DNA of 57,077 nt from a virus, in the IMG/VR virus record IMGVR_UViG_3300045988_173429; one strand, written 5' to 3'. The position numbers were made by a program, and so were the translations under genes. Below the pieces are notes generated by a model. It was not told the origin of the DNA, searched no databases, and saw only the letters and a list, made by a program, of their open reading frames with translations. This document shows, one piece after another, positions 3,647 through 57,077 of this stretch. The first letter of the stretch is position 1. Each line of letters starts with the position of its first letter.

Positions 3647-4852
3647 ATGGCCACATTTAAGCATGAAGTACAAAAGCAGCGGAAGGACGGTACTTTTAAT
3701 GTAAAGATACTTGTCACTCATAACAGACAGTTGAAGAGATTGCCGACTGGCATTTATATCACCAAAGATGATATGACGCGATCAGGCAAAATCAAAAACC
3801 AGAAAGTATTAGATCAGATAGATGATTTGATAAGGCTATACAGAAAAAAAGCAAATGAACTTTCTATTGCAATTAATACCATGACTATAGATAAATTGGC
3901 AGATTATCTGTGTGAGCCGGAAATAGCCTCTATCGATTTTATAGAAGTGTTTCGTGATTACATAGATGAGAATGCAGATAAGAAAGGTTTGAAAAATTAC
4001 AGATCGGCGCTAAACTCTCTTATTAAATTCATAGGAAGGGATAGGTTGGATGTTTCGGAAATAACTGTTGCTTTTCTGGAAAAATATGAGACTTATCTTG
4101 GGAAAGGCCGTGCGGCGTCTTTGTATCTTGGCAGTATGAGGCATGTTTATTTTTATGCGAAACAAAAATACAACGACGAAGATGCAAAAAGGATATTGAT
4201 ACCTTATTCTCCATTTTCAAGATATAAGGTTCCTCGTCAGAATATTGCTGAAAAAAGAGCGATTAGTGCTGATCTTGTCCGGGAGATAATAAAATTGCCC
4301 TATGACACTACAAGTAGGGGAAATAATAAAGAAAATCGTTATAATCTGGCAAAGGACTGCTTTATACTATCATTCTGTCTTATTGGAATGAACTCTGTTG
4401 ATTTGTACAATGCGGAAATATGCGAGAATAGCGAAATTGTATATTGTCGGACTAAAACAAAGGATCGCAGAAGTGACAACGCAAAGATTCGAATCAAGAT
4501 ACATCCCCTCATATTGCCCATAATTAAAAAGTACATGGATAAAACAGGAAAAAGAGTTTTTAGGTTTTATCAAATGTATGCCGATCAGTCGACATTTAAT
4601 GCCGCTCTAAATAAAGGATTGAAAGCTGTTGGAAAAAAGATTGGTATTCCCGATCTTGAATTTTATGCAGCCCGCCATTCTTGGGCCACGATAGCAAGAA
4701 ATGATTTGAATACTGATAAGTCAACCATAGATGAAGCCTTGAACCATGTTGATAAGAACCTTTCAGTTACAGATTTGTATATAAAGAAGGACTTTTCGAT
4801 TATTAACAAGGTTAATAAGTCGGTTTTAGATTATATATTCAATTTTACATAA
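3647..4852 (+). CDS. int: tyrosine site-specific integrase
   Basis: 401 aa. C-terminal AARHSWATIARN and DLYIKKD catalytic-region motifs. Adjacent to the tRNA-fragment attP. Confidence 0.9.
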   Translation: MATFKHEVQKQRKDGTFNVKILVTHNRQLKRLPTGIYITKDDMTRSGKIKNQKVLDQIDDLIRLYRKKANELSIAINTMTIDKLADYLCEPEIASIDFIEVFRDYIDENADKKGLKNYRSALNSLIKFIGRDRLDVSEITVAFLEKYETYLGKGRAASLYLGSMRHVYFYAKQKYNDEDAKRILIPYSPFSRYKVPRQNIAEKRAISADLVREIIKLPYDTTSRGNNKENRYNLAKDCFILSFCLIGMNSVDLYNAEICENSEIVYCRTKTKDRRSDNAKIRIKIHPLILPIIKKYMDKTGKRVFRFYQMYADQSTFNAALNKGLKAVGKKIGIPDLEFYAARHSWATIARNDLNTDKSTIDEALNHVDKNLSVTDLYIKKDFSIINKVNKSVLDYIFNFT

Positions 4853-5506: not shown

Positions 5507-6259
5507 TTATGCTTTAAATAGTGAATGCAAGAATGCCCTGCCTTGTTCCGTCCATACGGTAAGCATAGCCGTGCTTTGTGAGCCGTCCGAACGGGTGTAG
5601 GTGTGCGTCCTTGTCTTGGTGTATCCTTTGTTCTGATATTTGGACGTCAGAACCCATACTCCGCTTTGCCGGTATTGAATACCTTTTTCTTTCAGTCGCT
5701 TGTTGAGAGTTTCCGCACTCATTCCCATTTCCTTTGCAATCAAGTTTGTGGCATAGGTGTTGACGGACTGTAAGACGGTGTCAACGTACTGGACTTTCGG
5801 GGCGGCTTGGGCAAGCTCTTTCTGTTGGAGTTCGATTGTTTCCTCTTTGGCTGCATTGTCGGCTTCAAGGGCTTTTACTCTCTGTTCTGCTGCTTCTACC
5901 CGTTTCTGTAGGATTTGCTGCGAACGCATGAGGATATAATCATCATCCTTAAGCATCATTTCCCGTTTGTTGAACTCGGAAATGAATTTTTCCTTGAACT
6001 CACCTGCTTTTGCTCCTGTGTAGCCCATGACAAGAAAACTGAAACCGTCTTTGGTCATTTCGTAGTAGTGATAAACTTGACCGTTCTGTGGGTGGGTGTA
6101 GGGGGTATGCGCAAAATTGCGCACCCTGAAATCTTCTGAACATGAGAGCTTCTCAATATCTCTCAATACATCTTTGTGATTCTTACCGAACACCTGTGCA
6201 ACGATTAAAGAAGTGGTAACATCGTTGCCGTTGCTGTTTTGAATTACTAATTCTGCCAT
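5507..6259 (-). CDS. Rha-family regulator / antirepressor with KilAC-like C-terminal domain
   Basis: From MAELVIQNSNGNDVTTSLIVAQVFGKNHKDVLRDIEKL (Rha motif). C-terminus AAPKVQYVDTVL...LIAKEMGMSAETLNKRL is KilAC-like. Confidence 0.8.
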   Translation of the reverse strand: MAELVIQNSNGNDVTTSLIVAQVFGKNHKDVLRDIEKLSCSEDFRVRNFAHTPYTHPQNGQVYHYYEMTKDGFSFLVMGYTGAKAGEFKEKFISEFNKREMMLKDDDYILMRSQQILQKRVEAAEQRVKALEADNAAKEETIELQQKELAQAAPKVQYVDTVLQSVNTYATNLIAKEMGMSAETLNKRLKEKGIQYRQSGVWVLTSKYQNKGYTKTRTHTYTRSDGSQSTAMLTVWTEQGRAFLHSLFKA

Positions 6260-6275
6260 AACTTTCAGCATTAAG

Positions 6276-6590
6276 TTATATAATAGGCAACAAAAAAGCG
6301 GCTGCCATATACGCTGCTGAAAGTTGATGGACTTCACCCCGAAAGGCTAATCTTAACTTACGTATAGGCAACCGCCAATATCTTATATGAACTTTGCTCC
6401 CGACATTTATGTCGCCAGCAAAATTTTGGACATAAAAAATGCCCAACAAACAATTGAGCAAATTAACCGCTTGCCCTGCGAGATGATTAAGCTCATCAAC
6501 TTTCAGCACTGCAAATGTAGGGATAAATTCTATTCCCGCAACTAAATTCACAAAATTTTCTTTTTCAAATAGAACTACTTTTGTTTTCAT
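6276..6590 (-). CDS. hypothetical protein
   Basis: 104-aa ORF, operon context only. Confidence 0.4.
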   Translation of the reverse strand: MKTKVVLFEKENFVNLVAGIEFIPTFAVLKVDELNHLAGQAVNLLNCLLGIFYVQNFAGDINVGSKVHIRYWRLPIRKLRLAFRGEVHQLSAAYMAAAFLLPII

Positions 6591-7245: not shown

Positions 7246-7337
7246 CAAATATAAAGCTATCACTTTGATTGTACAATTGAAAAATGAACCGATAACTTAG
7301 TTTTAACCTTATTTAATCAAAGCTATCACTTTGATTG
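7246..7337. promoter_or_regulatory. divergent promoter region with two 19-bp operator-like repeats
   Basis: AAAGCTATCACTTTGATTG at 7253..7271 and 7319..7337, with internal dyad ATCAAAG-N6-CTTTGAT. TATATTTG box on the minus strand at 7246..7253. Confidence 0.6.
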
Positions 7338-7379
7338 ATCTTTTCTCTATATTTTTGCATCAAATCAATAAATAAAGCT

Positions 7380-7628
7380 ATGGGTTTAAATATTAAGAAG
7401 ACAATCAAAGATTATGGGTTGGAAGTTAGAGAGGTTGCCAAGAGAATGGAAATATCTCCAACAGGGCTATCTCAACATATAAATGGCAATCCCTCTGTTG
7501 AAGTCTTACAACGTATCGCTGATGCAATCGGCTGTGATGTATCTGAACTATTCGAGCACCCCAAGAAAGATTTTCTATCCCTTACCTGTCCTCACTGTGG
7601 CAAGGATATTAGCATAAAAGTTGAATAG
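7380..7628 (+). CDS. XRE-family HTH protein with C-terminal CxxC
   Basis: MGLNIKKTIKDYGLEVREVAKRMEISPTGLSQHINGNPS...CPHCGK. Confidence 0.7.
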   Translation: MGLNIKKTIKDYGLEVREVAKRMEISPTGLSQHINGNPSVEVLQRIADAIGCDVSELFEHPKKDFLSLTCPHCGKDISIKVE

Positions 7629-7716
7629 TATATTGTTAAAAATATAGTAATATTAGCCTTTGTTCGATTTAACTAATACCTTTGTAAACAAATATAACCC
7701 CAAAAAATAAATAATA

Positions 7717-8127
7717 ATGAAAAAGTATTTGCTTTTAATGATTGTTGTCCTAACAACCAGCTGTAGAACTTATTACTCTGAACAAAGCAATGTTCTGGAT
7801 TTTAGAAAATATACAGAAAATGGCTTTGTTATAAACCCCACATCTTCAGGAATGGATTTTGAACCTATTTCTATGATAAGTGTTTCATTTTATTCAGGAG
7901 AAAAATTGAAAGGTGTCTTTAAAAATGAAAACGGAATTATAAATATATACGACAAATCTGTACAAACGAAATTTTACTGTGCAACCCCAGATAGAATGTT
8001 GGAAAAAATAGTCAGTGAATGTAAAAAAATGGGTGCTAACGGTATTATAAACTTTAATATGAAACCGATACCGGAAGCCAAATATCAAAGTTGGGAAGTT
8101 TCAGGTGTTGCCGTTAAGTTGAAATAA
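7717..8127 (+). CDS. lipoprotein, YbjQ/DUF74-like C-terminus
   Basis: Signal LLMIVVLTTSC. C-terminus GANGIINFNM...VSGVAVKL. Confidence 0.55.
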   Translation: MKKYLLLMIVVLTTSCRTYYSEQSNVLDFRKYTENGFVINPTSSGMDFEPISMISVSFYSGEKLKGVFKNENGIINIYDKSVQTKFYCATPDRMLEKIVSECKKMGANGIINFNMKPIPEAKYQSWEVSGVAVKLK

Positions 8128-8164
8128 TACTTAATGACCATGGGGAAACTTAGACATCGCCTTT

Positions 8165-8192
8165 AGCCCCGATCCTTTAACGGGGCTTTTTT
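8165..8192 (+). terminator. intrinsic terminator
   Basis: AGCCCCG-N9-CGGGGCT followed by TTTTTT. Confidence 0.75.
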
Positions 8193-8414
8193 ATACCTCA
8201 AAACTTGCGGAGCAGGATATTAATGACTGTTTTTTAGATAGCCATTCCGGCTATAGGCTATAGGTAAAATGTCGCTTTGCCCTTGACTGCAAATATGATG
8301 TTAAAATCCTTGCAAGTTTGAAATATAAAAGCGAATTTTGCATCACAAAAGAAAACAAAGCAACCTCGCTGGGTAAACAGTCCTGGTGGAGGTTTTGTTG
8401 TATAGTATGCGGTT

Positions 8415-8822
8415 ATGTCAAAAGTAAAAGCAAAATCTATAGAAAATTTTAAGGCTGCTCACCTTTTGTACAATAAAGGAATGCATGCTGCTTCGGTACA
8501 TAATGCTTATTATTCTATACTTCAAATATCAAAACATATATTGCATCATAAATGTTATGTTTCGTATAGTAAGCAAAAGAAAGAAAGTAAAAATGGATAC
8601 GGATCTCATAATTATATAATAGGAGAAATTGAAAACAATTTAACCTCAAGAGGGGAACAAGATCTATTTGATAGTTATGATGATAAAATGTCTGAGATGA
8701 AAAGAATGCGAGTCCTTGCCGATTATGAAGATGCGGAGATCACAAAAGATGAAGCGCAGGCATGTATCGACTATGCTGATGAGTTATTAACTGATTTGAA
8801 AGAGTGCTATAATATATTATGA
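8415..8822 (+). CDS. HEPN-domain protein
   Basis: AAHLLYNKGMHAASVHNAYYSILQISKHIL...GSHNY...RVLADYEDAEITKDEAQACIDYADELL matches the HEPN (PF05168-type) pattern. I did not find a clear Rx4-6H motif. Confidence 0.7.
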   Translation: MSKVKAKSIENFKAAHLLYNKGMHAASVHNAYYSILQISKHILHHKCYVSYSKQKKESKNGYGSHNYIIGEIENNLTSRGEQDLFDSYDDKMSEMKRMRVLADYEDAEITKDEAQACIDYADELLTDLKECYNIL

Positions 8823-9205
8823 ATGAATATGTCGCTAATTTTATAAAGGATATGATGGACACCATTTGTTCAGAATTTAATGGTGTAAGTGTAAGTTATG
8901 CATTTGAAGAACTAACATCTTTTCACATTGTTGAAATAAAAACATCTTTTGAAGGTAACGATGAGTCTGCAACAAAGTTTAAGGATATAATGCATCTTTA
9001 TCGTGTACAAATACGAAACACGTTTCCAAACGAAGATATCATTATTGGATACCCTAAAAAATTTCATGATATGAGTAATACATTGTATAGTAAGGAAAGC
9101 TTTGATATCTTTGGGGGAAAAGAAAAGAGTTATACATTTAATGAATTTCATTCTTCATGGTTAGGAATGGAGACTATAAGTAATGAACAACAGTTAGCAG
9201 CATAA
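8819..9205 (+). CDS. unknown protein, translationally coupled between the HEPN and SecB-like genes
   Basis: ATGA overlap with the HEPN stop. 128 aa. No nucleotidyltransferase (GSxxRG) motif. Aromatic-rich C-terminal tail FNEFHSSWLGMETISNEQQLAA. Confidence 0.6.
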   Translation: MNEYVANFIKDMMDTICSEFNGVSVSYAFEELTSFHIVEIKTSFEGNDESATKFKDIMHLYRVQIRNTFPNEDIIIGYPKKFHDMSNTLYSKESFDIFGGKEKSYTFNEFHSSWLGMETISNEQQLAA

Positions 9206-9209
9206 TATT

Positions 9210-9614
9210 ATGGCGGAAGCAATTGCAAAATTTAGATTTAAAAGGTATAAAATCTTGTCATCTAATATTGAGATAAAAGATGATGACAATCTCGATGGTA
9301 AATTAAATGTTGTGTTTGAACAAACAGGAACAGAGGATGTTGGCATGAATACATATCAACATACTTTGGTTGTTAAGATTTCGAATAAAGATAGATCAAT
9401 TGTCGCAGATGTTAAAATAACAGGATGGTTTGAGTTTGATTCAGAGATAGACGATAAGACAAAATTTATTTTCTTTAATTCAAGTGCTCCTGCTATTTTA
9501 TTCCCATACCTAAGGGCGTACATAACTACTTTAACGGGATTATCAGGAATTAATCCAATAATTCTTCCCACTTTGAATTTATCAAATAGGAATAATGCAG
9601 AAAGGCCGGAATAG
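9210..9614 (+). CDS. SecB-like chaperone
   Basis: FRFKRYKILSSNIEI...GWFEFDSEID...SSAPAILFPYLRAYITTLTGLSGINPIILPTLNL parallels the E. coli SecB stretch [32 protein letters not shown]. Confidence 0.75.
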   Translation: MAEAIAKFRFKRYKILSSNIEIKDDDNLDGKLNVVFEQTGTEDVGMNTYQHTLVVKISNKDRSIVADVKITGWFEFDSEIDDKTKFIFFNSSAPAILFPYLRAYITTLTGLSGINPIILPTLNLSNRNNAERPE

Positions 9615-9631
9615 TCTCCGGCTTTATTTTT
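9605..9631 (+). terminator. intrinsic terminator
   Basis: GCCGGA-N6-TCCGGC followed by TTTATTTTT. It overlaps the stop codon. Confidence 0.7.
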
Positions 9632-9639
9632 ATCCACCA

Positions 9640-9705
9640 CGCCCTCCGATTGCCTCGTAGGGGTTCCGCCCTCCGATTGCCTCGTAGGGGTTCCGCCCTC
9701 CGATT
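9640..9705. repeat. GC-rich 27-bp tandem repeat, 2.4 copies
   Basis: CGCCCTCCGATTGCCTCGTAGGGGTTC at 9640 and 9667, partial copy at 9694. Lies between convergent operons. Confidence 0.9.
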
Positions 9706-9788
9706 ATACGATATCTATTTTTCGATTCAAGGCTTTAGCTTTCGTCGAATTGACCGTGTATAATTTGATGCTTGCAACTTTCATGGTA

Positions 9789-9971
9789 CTATTTTATAAC
9801 AAGCTCTATATTAAGAGCTTCCAATATAGATTCAATTTTATTCTGCCCCAAATTCATTTTCCCATTAAGGAATAAGGACATAGAGCTTTCCGAAAGCCCA
9901 ATGTGTTCCGCAAGGTCTTTGCTTTTTACTTTGCGGAGCTTCATAGCTTCTTTTACAATATCTCTTATCAT
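9789..9971 (-). CDS. XRE-family HTH protein (60 aa)
   Basis: KSKDLAEHIGLSESSMSLFLNGKMNLGQNKIESIL. Confidence 0.7.
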   Translation of the reverse strand: MIRDIVKEAMKLRKVKSKDLAEHIGLSESSMSLFLNGKMNLGQNKIESILEALNIELVIK

Positions 9972-9973
9972 AA

Positions 9974-10258
9974 TTAAAAAACAACAATTTGGAGTTTGTA
10001 GCCATTATTATCTGAAAATTGGTATACTTCGCAATTTTCATTGTAATATTCGGACTCTTTTATGTCATCGCAAGCGTCGACAAGCCCATCAAATAAAAAT
10101 CCTTCTAATTCAGAGACAAAGTTGTCGATGGAATCGTCGCCTTGATTCTGCATAAGATCAAGCCCGGAGCCACCGTTGCCCAATGTTGCCAATACCAAAG
10201 AATTATTGCTTGACAATTCACTCTTTGCAAATTCTATAACTTCCTTTTTTGTTCTCAT
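9974..10258 (-). CDS. small strongly acidic protein
   Basis: From MRTKKEVIEF. Rich in D/E (DDSIDNFVSELEGFLFDGLVDACDDIKESEYYNE). Confidence 0.55.
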   Translation of the reverse strand: MRTKKEVIEFAKSELSSNNSLVLATLGNGGSGLDLMQNQGDDSIDNFVSELEGFLFDGLVDACDDIKESEYYNENCEVYQFSDNNGYKLQIVVF

Positions 10259-10268
10259 GATTGTAGAT

Positions 10269-10574
10269 TTAAAATACTTCTTTTTCAACAACTAATTTGT
10301 CAGGGGTGATATCATATTCTATTGCGAATGCGCATCCATCTTCATATTCTGTATCCTGGATAACATCGTAATCTGGCACTTCGAATGAAAATATAACATA
10401 ATCAGAGGTGTTGTCGGTGATAAAATTAATGGCATCAGCCATGTTGTTGAACCCGAAAACGTAAGATCCAGATAATCTTTCGTCATTCGAAATTTTATCA
10501 CTTTCATTTGAATAAATGCCATATTCTAATATATTTTCTTTATTCTCTATAGGCGATGCGTGATACAGTTTCAT
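10269..10574 (-). CDS. hypothetical protein
   Basis: 101 aa, MKLYHASPIENKENILEYGI... First gene of a three-gene unit. Confidence 0.55.
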   Translation of the reverse strand: MKLYHASPIENKENILEYGIYSNESDKISNDERLSGSYVFGFNNMADAINFITDNTSDYVIFSFEVPDYDVIQDTEYEDGCAFAIEYDITPDKLVVEKEVF

Positions 10575-10618
10575 GGCTATTTATTTTTAATTGTTATTAC
10601 TTGTTTTTTATTACACTA

Positions 10619-11805: not shown

Positions 11806-13833
11806 GTGGATAAGAAGGTAATAAGCTATAAGAGGTTCAATCCCAATTTTCATCATTTAAGAGTTGCTCTTAAGAATGATGACAATAGGTTTATCTTCCT
11901 ATACGGTGGATCTTCTTCTGCTAAATCTTTTTCGATTTCGCAAGCTATTGTGTTGGAGTGTATTGAGAATGGATATAACACGATGGTGTTTAGAAAAACT
12001 GGAGCTACTATATCGGATAGTATATATAAGAGTATTCAGGAGGCTATAGGAGGCTTAAAACTTGGCGCATTCTTTAAGCCGGTAGAGGGGCAGATAAGGT
12101 GCTTTAATGGTTCATATATCACTTTCAAAGGCTTGGATGACCCCGAAAAAATAAAAGGCCTTGAAAGTTACCAATATGTATTCTGCGAAGAAATATCCGA
12201 ATTTGATGAAAGTGACTTTAAGCAGATAAGGAAGCGCCTTAGAGGTAGGAAGGGACAAAAGATCATTGCTGCATTTAACCCCATATCCGAAGACCACTGG
12301 ATTAAGAAGAATATATTTGAGCAGGAGAAATTGGTGGAAGTTGACAATCATCTTTACGGGAAATTAAAAGATAATCTAACAGGGAAGATATTAAAAAAAG
12401 AATATTCTGAAATCGCCCAGAAATGGACTAATTCCGCTAAGCTAATATTTAATCCTCGAACAAAAGAATACGATACACATAACCCTGATATAGTGATTAT
12501 GCGGTCTACTTATCTTAATAATTTCTGGGTAGTAGGTTCTCCTGATGGGGGCTATGGTTTTTATGATGCCCAAGTGATAGCCGACTTTGAAAAAGATAAA
12601 GTAAATGATTACGCGTATTATCAAGTATACGCGCTGGGGGAATGGGGGACCGTTAAGACCGGAGGGGAGTTCTTCAGAAACTTCGAGATTGGCAAGCACG
12701 TCGGTCGTTTCGAGTACGATGAACGTTATCCTATCCATATAACTATAGACAACAATGTGCTACCATATATATCAATCGGATTTTGGCAAATTATTACGGG
12801 CGATGTAAATAGCGCAAGACAAGTTCATGAGATACCGGCAGAAGATCCTTTTAATACGGCTTCTAAAGCTTCTGAGGCAGCGGTGGAATACCTCGAGGAT
12901 ATTGGTTATAACGACAAGGTGTATCTATATGGGGATGTGTCGACAAAGAGCGGTAATACAATCGATGATGATAAACTCTCTTTTTTTGACAAATTTAAGG
13001 ATGGTCTGGAAAAATCATTTGTCGTCGAAGAGAGGATGCCCAGAGTAAATCCATCTGTCGCCATGTCGGGGGAATTTATCAATGCCATTTATGCTGGCGC
13101 TATAAAAAGTATAGATATTAGAATAGATGAAAGTTGCAAGGTTTCGATAAATGACTACTCTCGTGTAAAGAAGGATGTGAACGGAGCAATCTTGAAACAG
13201 AGGGTTAAAAATAAAGATACAGGGCAGACATATGAGCAATACGGCCATTTTAGTGATACGAAGCGATATTTTATAACGGAGGCTTTTAATAAAGAGTACA
13301 CGAAGTTTTCTCTTAGAAGAAGTAGAAATAAGATTTCTGATACCTCTATAAAGTATTATGACAAGTCAAAGGTCGACTTGTCTGAAGGATATGGCATGGT
13401 CGAAATCAACCCTTCCATCAATTCGCAATCCGTGTTTGTCAGAGTTATATTTAAAGATAACAAATGCTATGTCACAAGGGCAATGTTATCTGATACCATT
13501 ATAGATGAGCTTGAGGTATCCTCGTTGATTGTTCCAGGTGATAGAGTTCAGGTGGAATGCGATCCTTCACTTGCGGCCTATGTCAAAAATTTAAAGGATC
13601 ATGTCCAAGATGTTAGAGGCAGAAAGCCTTTCCATGATCCTCAAAAAAGGATATCTGCTCATATCGATTATATCCTGAACAACATATTCATCCCAAGTGA
13701 TTATGATACGGATATTCTTTTTGAAGCGTTTATTGAAAACATCCTTGACTACAAGGATAAGAATAACATAGAAGCTATAAATTCATTAGCGGCATTATCA
13801 GAAAGGGTTAAGAGGGGCTTATATGTCGGATAG
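11806..13833 (+). CDS. terL: terminase large subunit (unusually long, 675 aa)
   Basis: GTG start. Walker A FLYGGSSSAKS. PBSX/Terminase_3-like ATPase. C-terminal nuclease-like ...NIEAINSLAALSE. Confidence 0.85.
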   Translation: MDKKVISYKRFNPNFHHLRVALKNDDNRFIFLYGGSSSAKSFSISQAIVLECIENGYNTMVFRKTGATISDSIYKSIQEAIGGLKLGAFFKPVEGQIRCFNGSYITFKGLDDPEKIKGLESYQYVFCEEISEFDESDFKQIRKRLRGRKGQKIIAAFNPISEDHWIKKNIFEQEKLVEVDNHLYGKLKDNLTGKILKKEYSEIAQKWTNSAKLIFNPRTKEYDTHNPDIVIMRSTYLNNFWVVGSPDGGYGFYDAQVIADFEKDKVNDYAYYQVYALGEWGTVKTGGEFFRNFEIGKHVGRFEYDERYPIHITIDNNVLPYISIGFWQIITGDVNSARQVHEIPAEDPFNTASKASEAAVEYLEDIGYNDKVYLYGDVSTKSGNTIDDDKLSFFDKFKDGLEKSFVVEERMPRVNPSVAMSGEFINAIYAGAIKSIDIRIDESCKVSINDYSRVKKDVNGAILKQRVKNKDTGQTYEQYGHFSDTKRYFITEAFNKEYTKFSLRRSRNKISDTSIKYYDKSKVDLSEGYGMVEINPSINSQSVFVRVIFKDNKCYVTRAMLSDTIIDELEVSSLIVPGDRVQVECDPSLAAYVKNLKDHVQDVRGRKPFHDPQKRISAHIDYILNNIFIPSDYDTDILFEAFIENILDYKDKNNIEAINSLAALSERVKRGLYVG

Positions 13834-54001: not shown

Positions 54002-54070
54002 TGTGGATGCTAGGGAATCGAACCCCTTTCTTCCCCGGTAGGGGACGCTTTACCATTAAGCTATGCGCCC
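54002..54070 (-). ncRNA. tRNA-like element 2: D-arm and T-arm present, tetraloop 'anticodon' hairpin, unpaired acceptor
   Basis: Minus-strand sequence: GGGCGCA-TA-GCTT-AATGGTA-AAGC-G-TCCCC-TACC-GGGGA-AGAA-AGGGG-TTCGATT-CCCTA-GCATCCA. Ends 17 nt before the erf ATG. Confidence 0.45.
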
Positions 54071-54147
54071 TGTTGCCTGCCTCCTGGCGGTAATTGTTCC
54101 CGGATAACCTATCAAAGTACACCGGGATGTTGTTTGAAATAATAAAT

Positions 54148-54194
54148 GGAAACAAAATAACCGGTCTCTCACCGGACGCTGTCCTTTAACAGCG
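54148..54194 (-). terminator. two adjacent hairpins followed by a U-tract (weak terminator) in the erf leader
   Basis: Minus-strand sequence: CGCTGT-N6-ACAGCG, then CCGGT-GAGAG-ACCGG, then TTATTTTGTTT. Confidence 0.4.
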
Positions 54195-54336
54195 GAGTTG
54201 ATTAATTAAACATTGATTATTAATACTCACCCTACCGTGCTCCTGCCTACCGGACCATTGCAAATGTCAAGGTCTACCACTTTCAAGATTTGCGGTTGCC
54301 GATCTGAGGCGAGGTTTACACCTCGGATGCTTATTC

Positions 54337-56710: not shown

Positions 56711-57077
56711 CTACCGACCGAACACCTCTTTGAATTTGTTGTCTAAAGCATTAAGTATTCTAACCCTTATTGTCGGATCACAACTTATATTATCAATCGA
56801 ATAGATTCTAGCGAGAAGTTGTTCTCTTGAACCGCAGAAACATCCACAAGTATAAAAAGGGGCGATTTGGGGGTAATTGTGTTTATACCACATATGATTA
56901 GTTCCTTTTACCGCCACATAGTTTTTAGTGACTACGAAATCGTAGGTTGTTTCTTTATAACCCGGTGTGTTAGGGTTCCCGGCAGCGCTATAGCGGACAC
57001 TCCAGTCGCTATCCTTAGCCAGTTCAGTTAACACTTCTACCGGTGTGTTAGGGTTCCCGGCAGCGCTACGGCGGACA
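56711..57077 (-). CDS. LRV/HEAT-like repeat protein, C-terminal part
   Basis: The frame is open to the window end. Non-repeat C-terminal domain with a CGCFCG motif. Joins 1..402. Confidence 0.7.
   Translation of the reverse strand, partial: VRRSAAGNPNTPVEVLTELAKDSDWSVRYSAAGNPNTPGYKETTYDFVVTKNYVAVKGTNHMWYKHNYPQIAPFYTCGCFCGSREQLLARIYSIDNISCDPTIRVRILNALDNKFKEVFGR
56962..57077. repeat. 78-bp repeat family, copies at the right end
   Basis: Partial copy from 56962, then 57023..57077, which equals 1..55. Confidence 0.9.
57023..57077. repeat. 55-nt terminal overlap with 1..55 (circular assembly signature)
   Basis: Exact identity by direct comparison. Confidence 0.95.

Follow-up and report, generated by a model that had tools for sequence, protein, structure and literature searches.

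The 57,077-nt virus record IMGVR_UViG_3300045988_173429 of IMG/VR, called the window below when its whole length is meant, contains at positions 8415 to 9614 three adjoining genes which we consider, with a probability of roughly 0.7, to constitute a toxin-antitoxin-chaperone (TAC) system. Judging from sequence comparisons and from analogy with characterized systems, gene 1 would code for a HEPN toxin, gene 2 for a ClpXP-labile antitoxin, and gene 3 for a SecB-like chaperone shielding this antitoxin, and the module would act by abortive infection. The TAC architecture taken by itself seems somewhat more secure than the complete model, and the anti-phage role, which is drawn from analogy, is less secure than it. 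TAC systems have recently been recognized as phage sensors in which the chaperone reads new phage structural proteins and the toxin is released. The module and its parts are arranged as follows.

8165..8192, plus strand: upstream terminator hairpin (AGCCCCG/CGGGGCU, 9-nt loop, U6), which ends a lipoprotein-like gene and forms the left edge of a shared cassette
8193..8414, plus strand: leader of 222 nt, presumed home of the module's own promoter
8415..8822, plus strand: gene 1, HEPN-domain protein of 135 aa (translation of the open reading frame, ORF)
8499-8501, 8607-8609, 8709-8711, and 8721-8726, plus strand: codons of gene 1 for H29, H65, R99, and D103-Y104, respectively, which are invariant in the family alignment
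8819..9205, plus strand: gene 2, middle protein of 128 aa (ORF translation)
8819..9109, plus strand: predicted folded domain of gene 2, residues 1-97, alpha-beta-beta-alpha-beta-beta (AlphaFold2 with a 46-sequence alignment)
9110..9205, plus strand: tail of gene 2, residues 98-128 and stop codon, predicted to be disordered and aromatic-rich (AlphaFold2)
9210..9614, plus strand: gene 3, SecB-like chaperone of 134 aa (ORF translation)
9602..9631, plus strand: downstream intrinsic terminator covering the gene 3 stop codon, with a hairpin at 9602-9625 followed by a T-run

The close coupling of these three plus-strand genes, claimed in a preliminary description of this DNA, is evident on sequence inspection, as genes 1 and 2 share an ATGA at 8819-8822 and genes 2 and 3 are separated by 4 nt (9206-9209). 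Both of the bounding terminators proposed there consist of a hairpin and a U-run. The downstream one is matched by a terminator scan, and its folding energy of -14.0 kcal/mol (z -3.25) is equalled by 0 of 200 shuffles. The upstream hairpin (8165-8187; -12.5 kcal/mol, z -2.58 versus shuffles) was overlooked by the scan because its loop comprises 9 nt. The order toxin, antitoxin, and SecB-like chaperone, together with coupled genes and terminators on both sides, is the layout of a TAC operon. Within the leader, a terminator-like hairpin at 8366-8389 is followed by the U-rich stretch GGUUUUGUUGU and ends 25 nt 5' of the gene 1 start; a function of this hairpin as an attenuator is not supported (z -1.33 versus shuffles). 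An RNA family scan of positions 7600-10000 identified nothing of note.

In gene 3, the core AILFPYLRAY, named in its earlier assignment as SecB-like, is present, and Pfam SecB PF02556 is matched with 30.2 bits at a cut-off of 26. The best model is PD-T4-9_C of PADLOC, which corresponds to CmdC (1.3e-22, residues 6-129 of 134), and further matches are to phrog_21664 (6.9e-15) and, by BLASTP, to the annotated PD-T4-9_C of a P2-like Vibrio phage (33% identity, E 8e-13). Comparison of the gene 3 profile with the SecB structures 1fx3 and 1qyn gives values of about 3e-3 to 5e-3. Against the NCBIfam equivalogs for export SecB, gene 3 reaches 30 bits, far under their cut-offs of 103-277. Taken together, Pfam, NCBIfam, and PADLOC characterize gene 3 as a SecB homologue that is distinct from export SecB. 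Homologues of gene 3 are named "protein-export chaperone SecB" in public sources, which looks like a systematic misannotation.

Gene 2 had been described as a non-MNT middle partner (MNT, minimal nucleotidyltransferase) with an aromatic-rich tail, and both statements are correct. Neither a nucleotidyltransferase nor any other family is matched at E <= 1 in Pfam, PHROGs, PADLOC, or NCBIfam, and six aromatic residues (F99, F102, Y109, F111, F114, and W118) are found among the last 36. The structure prediction that had been suggested as a check was run and yields a confident domain for residues 1-97, with predicted local distance difference test (pLDDT) values mostly of 94-97, and leaves residues 98-128, with a pLDDT of 53-67, as a disordered tail. 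A fold search with the domain (Foldseek, PDB and BFVD) gives nothing at E <= 0.001, the best matches being CzrB (E 0.25) and an uncharacterised Myoviridae protein (E 0.12, target-normalised template modelling (TM) score 0.74). The MntA antitoxin (6m6w_A) was discarded as a fold match, its values (E 0.51, TM 0.27) being noise. Homology to canonical type II antitoxins was encountered neither in the four libraries nor in the two fold databases. Word-indexed homologue searches with genes 1 and 2 return only each gene's own cluster, so that an exhaustive HMMER search was needed for the relatives of gene 2; it retrieves 47 proteins at E <= 0.001 including its own cluster, mainly over residues 5-95. 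In this family, the N-terminal domain is conserved, with Y27, H36, and E39 invariant or near-invariant, and the tail is variable; nearly all of the relatives that are full-length terminate in AA, too. Residues 1-97 belong to an undescribed domain family and presumably form the toxin-neutralising part of the antitoxin.

Chaperone-addiction (ChAD) segments are disordered C-terminal extensions which are recognised via aromatic residues (PMC6377645; 10.1101/2024.02.24.581848), and recognition involves an aromatic residue preceded by a polar and followed by a small residue (10.1101/2024.02.24.581848). By prediction, gene 2 possesses a disordered C-terminal extension with aromatics of this kind, and its C-terminus consists of L126-A127-A128 (9194-9202). 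Presumably, the modelled tail serves as a ChAD segment and as a ClpX degron at the same time.

For the wider family, loci were fetched with an alignment of gene 3 relatives, 80 of them from GTDB species genomes and 75 from IMG/VR, and the layout was read by a script that took the two upstream ORFs on the same strand. Going by their record titles, the GTDB loci belong nearly all to Bacteroidota (Bacteroides, Parabacteroides, Prevotella, Dysgonomonas, Flavobacterium, Fulvivirga, and others), with one metagenome-assembled genome of Chlorobiota in addition. Almost everywhere, an ORF of ~130-140 aa and one of ~125 aa precede the SecB-like gene. The gene 2 profile is matched by 162 ORFs in the fetched loci, and nearly every chaperone relative is part of such a triad, which makes about 170 loci in genomes and phages of Bacteroidota. 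Among 83 distinct pairs of toxin and antitoxin genes, 52 overlap by 4 nt, and the gap between antitoxin and chaperone genes measures 1-5 nt in 65. The gene 2 cluster of the window alone occurs on 98 contigs, and the triad is common in human-gut metagenomes. Two more versions of the triad, seen in gut Bacteroides contigs (L011-L014 and L015-L018), abound in gut metagenomes, with the chaperone P0012 in 951 contigs and P0057 in 193; one version lies beside AbiH-like and CoiA_N-domain genes, the other downstream of a RadC-family gene.

In a set of 99 distinct middle proteins, the C-terminal residues are AA in 93 and LAA in 78, as compared with 7 and 2, respectively, of 865 other ORFs from the same loci; 36 end in YALAA, 10 in ENNYALAA, and Ala occupies position -2 in all 99. 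The position-wise consensus of the last nine residues, (D/G)(E/N)NNYALAA, reproduces the tag GENNYALAA of transfer-messenger RNA (tmRNA). ARAGORN confirms tmRNA genes with the tag GENNYALAA in 32 of the 33 IMG/VR loci having that coding pattern, and in locus L202 such a gene (12156-12554) adjoins a prophage which is 92-95% identical to parts of the lysogeny region of the window. Since GENNYALAA tmRNAs are found, one of them beside a close relative, the antitoxin terminus of the family seems to copy an ssrA tag of this host range. The N-Y-A of the family consensus fits the published pattern of ChAD recognition.

With its folded N-terminal domain, its disordered tail, and its terminal LAA, gene 2 bears the marks of a TAC antitoxin, so that the role of toxin probably falls to the HEPN protein. 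Originally, the identity of the toxic partner had been left open as no clear Rx4-6H motif could be seen in gene 1. This caveat was well placed, R99-V-L-A-D103-Y104 (R-x3-D-Y) being found instead, and the accompanying suggestion that gene 2 might be the toxin is disfavored by the antitoxin marks of gene 2. The HEPN signature itself (AYYS and RVLADY...EITKDEA) is present as had been reported, and Pfam HEPN PF05168 is matched with 32.2 bits (cut-off 22) over profile positions 4-116 of 117, also individually by 55 of the 73 members of the gene 1 family. Weak matches exist between gene 1 and the PADLOC defence-candidate model PDC-M05B (4.7e-5) and between a few family members and Pfam HEPN_AbiV and HepT-like_2. 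The family profile matches the PDB entry 9xbd, a "HEPN domain-containing protein" (8.2e-9), with YY, SH, and LR..sDY aligned, and weakly AF0298 (UPF0332, PDB 2hsb; 0.28). In most public gene calls, gene 1 starts at an internal ATG at 8481 (113 aa); we favor the start at 8415 because K7 is invariant, S8 and N11 are near-invariant, and the Pfam match begins at residue 4.

Residues K7, H29, Y32, Y33, H65, R99, D103, and Y104 are invariant in the 73-member alignment of the gene 1 family, in which no member has a His at the motif position and the upstream H65 and H29 are retained throughout. Members of the PF05168 clade often have Asp at the place of the motif His, and a His further upstream, which is strongly conserved, could form an alternative active site (PMC3710099). 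The R-x3-D-Y motif of gene 1 together with its upstream His fits this variant of the clade. HEPN domains judged to be inactive are those that lack conserved polar residues (PMC3710099), and the eight invariant polar or aromatic residues of the gene 1 family therefore favor an enzyme over a degenerate binder. On the basis of these sequence features, gene 1 is probably a toxin with RNase activity. The PDB entries 9xbd and 9xbc, which represent the nearest relative of gene 1 with a solved structure, form a pair of wild type and Tyr-to-Phe variant, and the changed residue aligns with the invariant Y104. This pairing suggests that the depositors regard the tyrosine as functionally important; an associated paper was not found in our literature search.

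Several observations weigh against the proposed model. The canonical Rx4-6H motif is absent from gene 1, and some HEPN domains are inactive binding modules (PMC3710099), so RNase activity of gene 1 is not assured. The single-sequence structure model of gene 1 is all-helical and, at a pLDDT of 51, too poor to confirm the fold. In gene 2 of the window itself, the end SNEQQLAA has no Tyr at position -5 and keeps only the LAA of the tmRNA-tag consensus. Use of GENNYALAA is tied to the contig of a close relative only and not to the hosts of the window phage, and recognition of LAA by ClpXP of Bacteroidota is assumed from work on E. coli and mycobacteria. In addition, neither a promoter (sigma-70-type scan) nor, on the plus strand, an exact Bacteroides -7 motif TAnnTTTG was found in the leader 8193-8414.

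Among known systems, CmdTAC of E. coli ECOR22 and P2-like phages is the closest. The module shares with it the organization as a prophage toxin-antitoxin-chaperone operon, a homologous CmdC-type chaperone, and a small middle protein whose disordered C-terminus closes with AA or LAA (CmdA of the Vibrio phage ends in GFAA). In ECOR22, CmdA has a terminal LAA, which ClpXP recognises; without CmdC it is degraded by ClpP, and CmdC itself binds Gp23, the capsid protein of T4 (PMC11618068). Exchange of the terminal AA of CmdA for DD abolishes the toxicity of CmdTA, and the terminal Ala-Ala of CmdA as well as the terminal Val-Ala of HigA1 from M. tuberculosis act as ClpX degrons (10.1101/2024.02.24.581848). 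Unlike CmdTAC, with its ADP-ribosyltransferase toxin and its occurrence in Proteobacteria, the module has a HEPN protein as toxin candidate and Bacteroidota as host phylum. As defined by its authors, CmdTAC, or PD-T4-9, has a homologue of CmdT, another ORF, and, in third place, a SecB-like gene (PMC9519451), and as the required CmdT homologue is absent here, the module is not CmdTAC. The PADLOC models PD-T4-9_A and PD-T4-9_B find no match in the module at E <= 1. Relationships of the gene 1 family with CmdT and of the gene 2 family with CmdA were considered and rejected, the hhalign probability being 0.1% in the comparison with phage CmdT and likewise with phage CmdA. By homology, the module appears to be a different toxin-antitoxin pair joined to a CmdC-like chaperone, and only the chaperone is common to it and CmdTAC.

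HigBAC (Rv1955-57 of M. tuberculosis and its counterpart in E. coli NT1F31) and MqsRAC resemble the module in combining a toxin, an antitoxin with a chaperone-addiction tail that employs aromatic residues, and a SecB-like chaperone (10.1101/2024.02.24.581848; PMC6377645). Their toxins are RNases of the RelE/HigB or MqsR type and their antitoxins consist of a helix-turn-helix (HTH) domain and ChAD, and neither family occurs in the module; CmdA, like gene 2, is not a canonical antitoxin. With HEPN-MNT (HepT/MntA, type VII toxin-antitoxin), RnlA-RnlB, LsoA-LsoB, and AbiV, the module has in common a small HEPN protein with an adjacent neutraliser. The toxins RnlA and LsoA are restrained by RnlB-type antitoxins, which are unstable and lie upstream (PMC3710099), and AbiV is an anti-phage HEPN RNase (10.1101/2024.05.05.592566). 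Unlike these systems, the module has no MNT partner beside its HEPN gene, carries the R-x3-D-Y motif, has a chaperone gene added, and places the toxin first. PF05168/UPF0332 proteins such as AF0298 (2hsb) and 9xbd, the family to which gene 1 itself belongs, are usually standalone or linked to a nucleotidyltransferase. Within the literature searched, no published link between HEPN toxins and a SecB-like chaperone operon was found.

The suggestion in the preliminary description that the operon is TAC-like is supported by its toxin-antitoxin-chaperone order, the coupling of its genes, the SecB-like third gene, and the disordered, aromatic C-terminal extension of the middle protein. In the mechanism that we propose, the toxin encoded by gene 1 would probably be a metal-independent RNase, with an active site formed by R99 with H65 and/or H29, plus D103-Y104, instead of the canonical Rx4-6H. 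By analogy, the N-terminal domain of gene 2 would bind and neutralise this toxin. A tetramer of the SecB-like protein would hold the tail of gene 2, so that the ssrA-type LAA degron would be masked and the antitoxin would remain stable. Architecture, the family-wide degron, and precedent back this step; the chaperone binding itself we infer. A new structural protein of an infecting phage might then displace the tail from the chaperone, a trigger modelled on the binding of T4 Gp23 by CmdC and of the lambda tail protein gpV by HigC. Subsequently, ClpXP would remove the antitoxin and the freed HEPN toxin would stop translation, the infection would abort, and, if the analogy holds, the lysogen population would be protected from other phages.

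As the N-Y-A motif directly abuts LAA in the family consensus, an additional proposal can be made for the antitoxins of this family, whose C-terminus would be a copy, encoded in the genome, of the tmRNA tag of their own host, and chaperone and ClpX would compete for the same six to nine residues in a degron-masking switch. We put this forward tentatively and regard it as rather unlikely. If it were so, binding by the chaperone might extend to any ssrA-tagged polypeptide, and the system would then sense the load on trans-translation and ClpXP during infection and not just a phage structural protein.

A role in prophage maintenance or in the stress response, with the same TAC architecture and with the toxin being freed upon loss of the element or by proteotoxic stress, has a minor share of the probability. 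TAC was first described in M. tuberculosis as stress-responsive (Sala 2013, cited in PMC7159879; PMC6377645). The module resides on a mobile element and its antitoxin bears marks of lability, and many family members are chromosomal and, on cursory view, have no obvious phage genes within 3 kb. In contrast, the SecB-type TACs that were tested, CmdTAC, MqsRAC, and HigBAC, all provide phage defence (PMC9519451, PMC11618068, 10.1101/2024.02.24.581848), the chaperone is closest to CmdC, and the cassette lies moron-like between its own terminators in the lysogeny region. Moreover, maintenance or stress and defence are compatible with each other.

It seems improbable that the roles are reversed or different, with the N-terminal domain of gene 2 as the harmful or active component, kept scarce by its LAA, and with the HEPN protein, catalytically inactive, serving as a regulator or sensor that binds RNA or nucleotides. 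Such a reversal could draw on the missing Rx4-6H motif and the existence of inactive HEPN binding modules (PMC3710099) as well as on the conservation of the gene 2 domain with its Y27, H36, and E39. However, characterized TACs all have the toxin as first gene and the tail or degron on the antitoxin (PMC11618068, PMC6377645), the invariant residues of the HEPN family, among them R99, H65, and H29, form an enzyme-like pattern, and release from the chaperone would destroy a gene 2 toxin instead of activating it.

An arrangement similar to type VII systems, in which gene 2 would be a cryptic MNT-like enzyme covalently modifying Tyr104 of the HEPN protein and the chaperone would merely stabilise this enzyme, is quite improbable. 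The residue modified in HEPN-MNT systems is a tyrosine in the active-site motif; in the module, Y104 is invariant, and the 9xbd/9xbc pair was deposited with and without Phe at the aligned position. HEPN-MNT toxins are neutralised by AMPylation, the MNT transferring a nucleoside monophosphate (PMC7641770, PMC11586414). MntA is also among the top Foldseek matches of gene 2, although at noise level and non-significant, and there is no nucleotidyltransferase match for gene 2 within the thresholds given above. Furthermore, the gene 2 family has no conserved Gly-Ser or DxD signature, and the predicted topology of the domain differs from the core of the pol-beta type. That no toxin system is present, and that gene 3 encodes a chaperone which assists proteins of the phage or the host in folding or export, accompanied by two unrelated accessory genes, as the public naming of its homologues might imply, is very improbable in view of its score far below the export SecB cut-offs, its best model being a defence chaperone, the fixed order and coupling in about 170 loci, and the conserved degron of the middle protein.

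The window is a Bacteroidota prophage and the TAC candidate is situated in its lysogeny region. The surrounding features are the following.

3647-4852: integrase (family search)
5507-6337, minus strand: Rha/ANT antirepressor (family search)
7335-7628: HTH protein of the Cro/CI type (family search)
7717-8127: lipoprotein-like ORF of 136 aa with a lipoprotein-type signal peptide, MKKYLLLMIVVLTTSC...
9640..9705, without strand: 27-bp tandem repeat CGCCCTCCGATTGCCTCGTAGGGGTTC, 2.4 copies with 100% matches (Tandem Repeats Finder), right edge of the cassette
9789-9971, minus strand: second HTH protein of the Cro/CI type, 3' of the module
Beyond the second HTH gene: DUF6965, then terminase and portal

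In related contigs, the element adjoins bamA/Omp85 or asnA. L007, a relative whose terminase and portal differ, agrees with the window at 100% identity over 8164-9650 and is unrelated just upstream, and homology breaks in relatives fall at 9650 and 9705. The boundaries, at the upstream terminator and the 27-bp repeat, are shared with this different phage backbone, and the module behaves like a discrete cassette. The copy number of the 27-bp repeat varies from 1 to 5 in loci L001-L010, and the repeat may be a preferred site of recombination or an array to which a protein binds. A DNA search of positions 7300-10600 against deposited phages gave no match. In E. coli, the variable locus that follows cI in a lambdoid prophage holds HigBAC (10.1101/2024.02.24.581848), and the module resembles HigBAC in being located in the lysogeny/repressor region of a prophage.

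The lipoprotein-like ORF at 7717-8127 has no family match and is a candidate for a superinfection-exclusion protein; at its place, L007 and L202 have an ORF of 191 aa, with a signal-peptide-like N-terminus in L202. The cargo of the immunity region at 5700-9000 of L202 differs and comprises a 79-aa and 135-aa pair and a 295-aa and 102-aa pair, which may be other toxin-antitoxin or defence modules. At the ends of the window, a 78-bp tandem repeat occupies positions 1-378 (4.8 copies, 94% matches) and the same unit is found at 56962-57077; these repeats also occur in the IMG/VR locus L203, and as an assembly, the window may be either circularly closed or terminally redundant. On the minus strand at 54003-54071, ARAGORN reports a "tRNA-???" with a two-base anticodon (ac). 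The same oddity exists in L184, which matches positions 54003-54235 of the window at 79% identity, and L199 has a similar tRNA-like gene with the anticodon (aa).

To our knowledge, the TACs studied so far are from Proteobacteria and mycobacteria and employ RelE/HigB, MqsR, or ADP-ribosyltransferase toxins. As a kind, TACs are already known, and what is new in the module, as predicted from its sequence, is the HEPN toxin, the novel antitoxin domain, and the ssrA-like degron. If the proposed model is true, it would describe a TAC with a HEPN toxin and a previously undescribed antitoxin domain, it would extend the host range of TACs by a triad that is conserved across Bacteroidota, and it would offer a clear degron case in which an antitoxin family carries the ssrA tag of its host. 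The current, widespread labelling of these genes as "SecB" and hypothetical proteins would have to be revised as well. For toxin-antitoxin research, the module would provide a compact system for asking whether masking of a ClpX degron by a chaperone is a general TAC switch, and for the biology of gut phages it is a testable candidate for prophage-encoded exclusion in Bacteroides.

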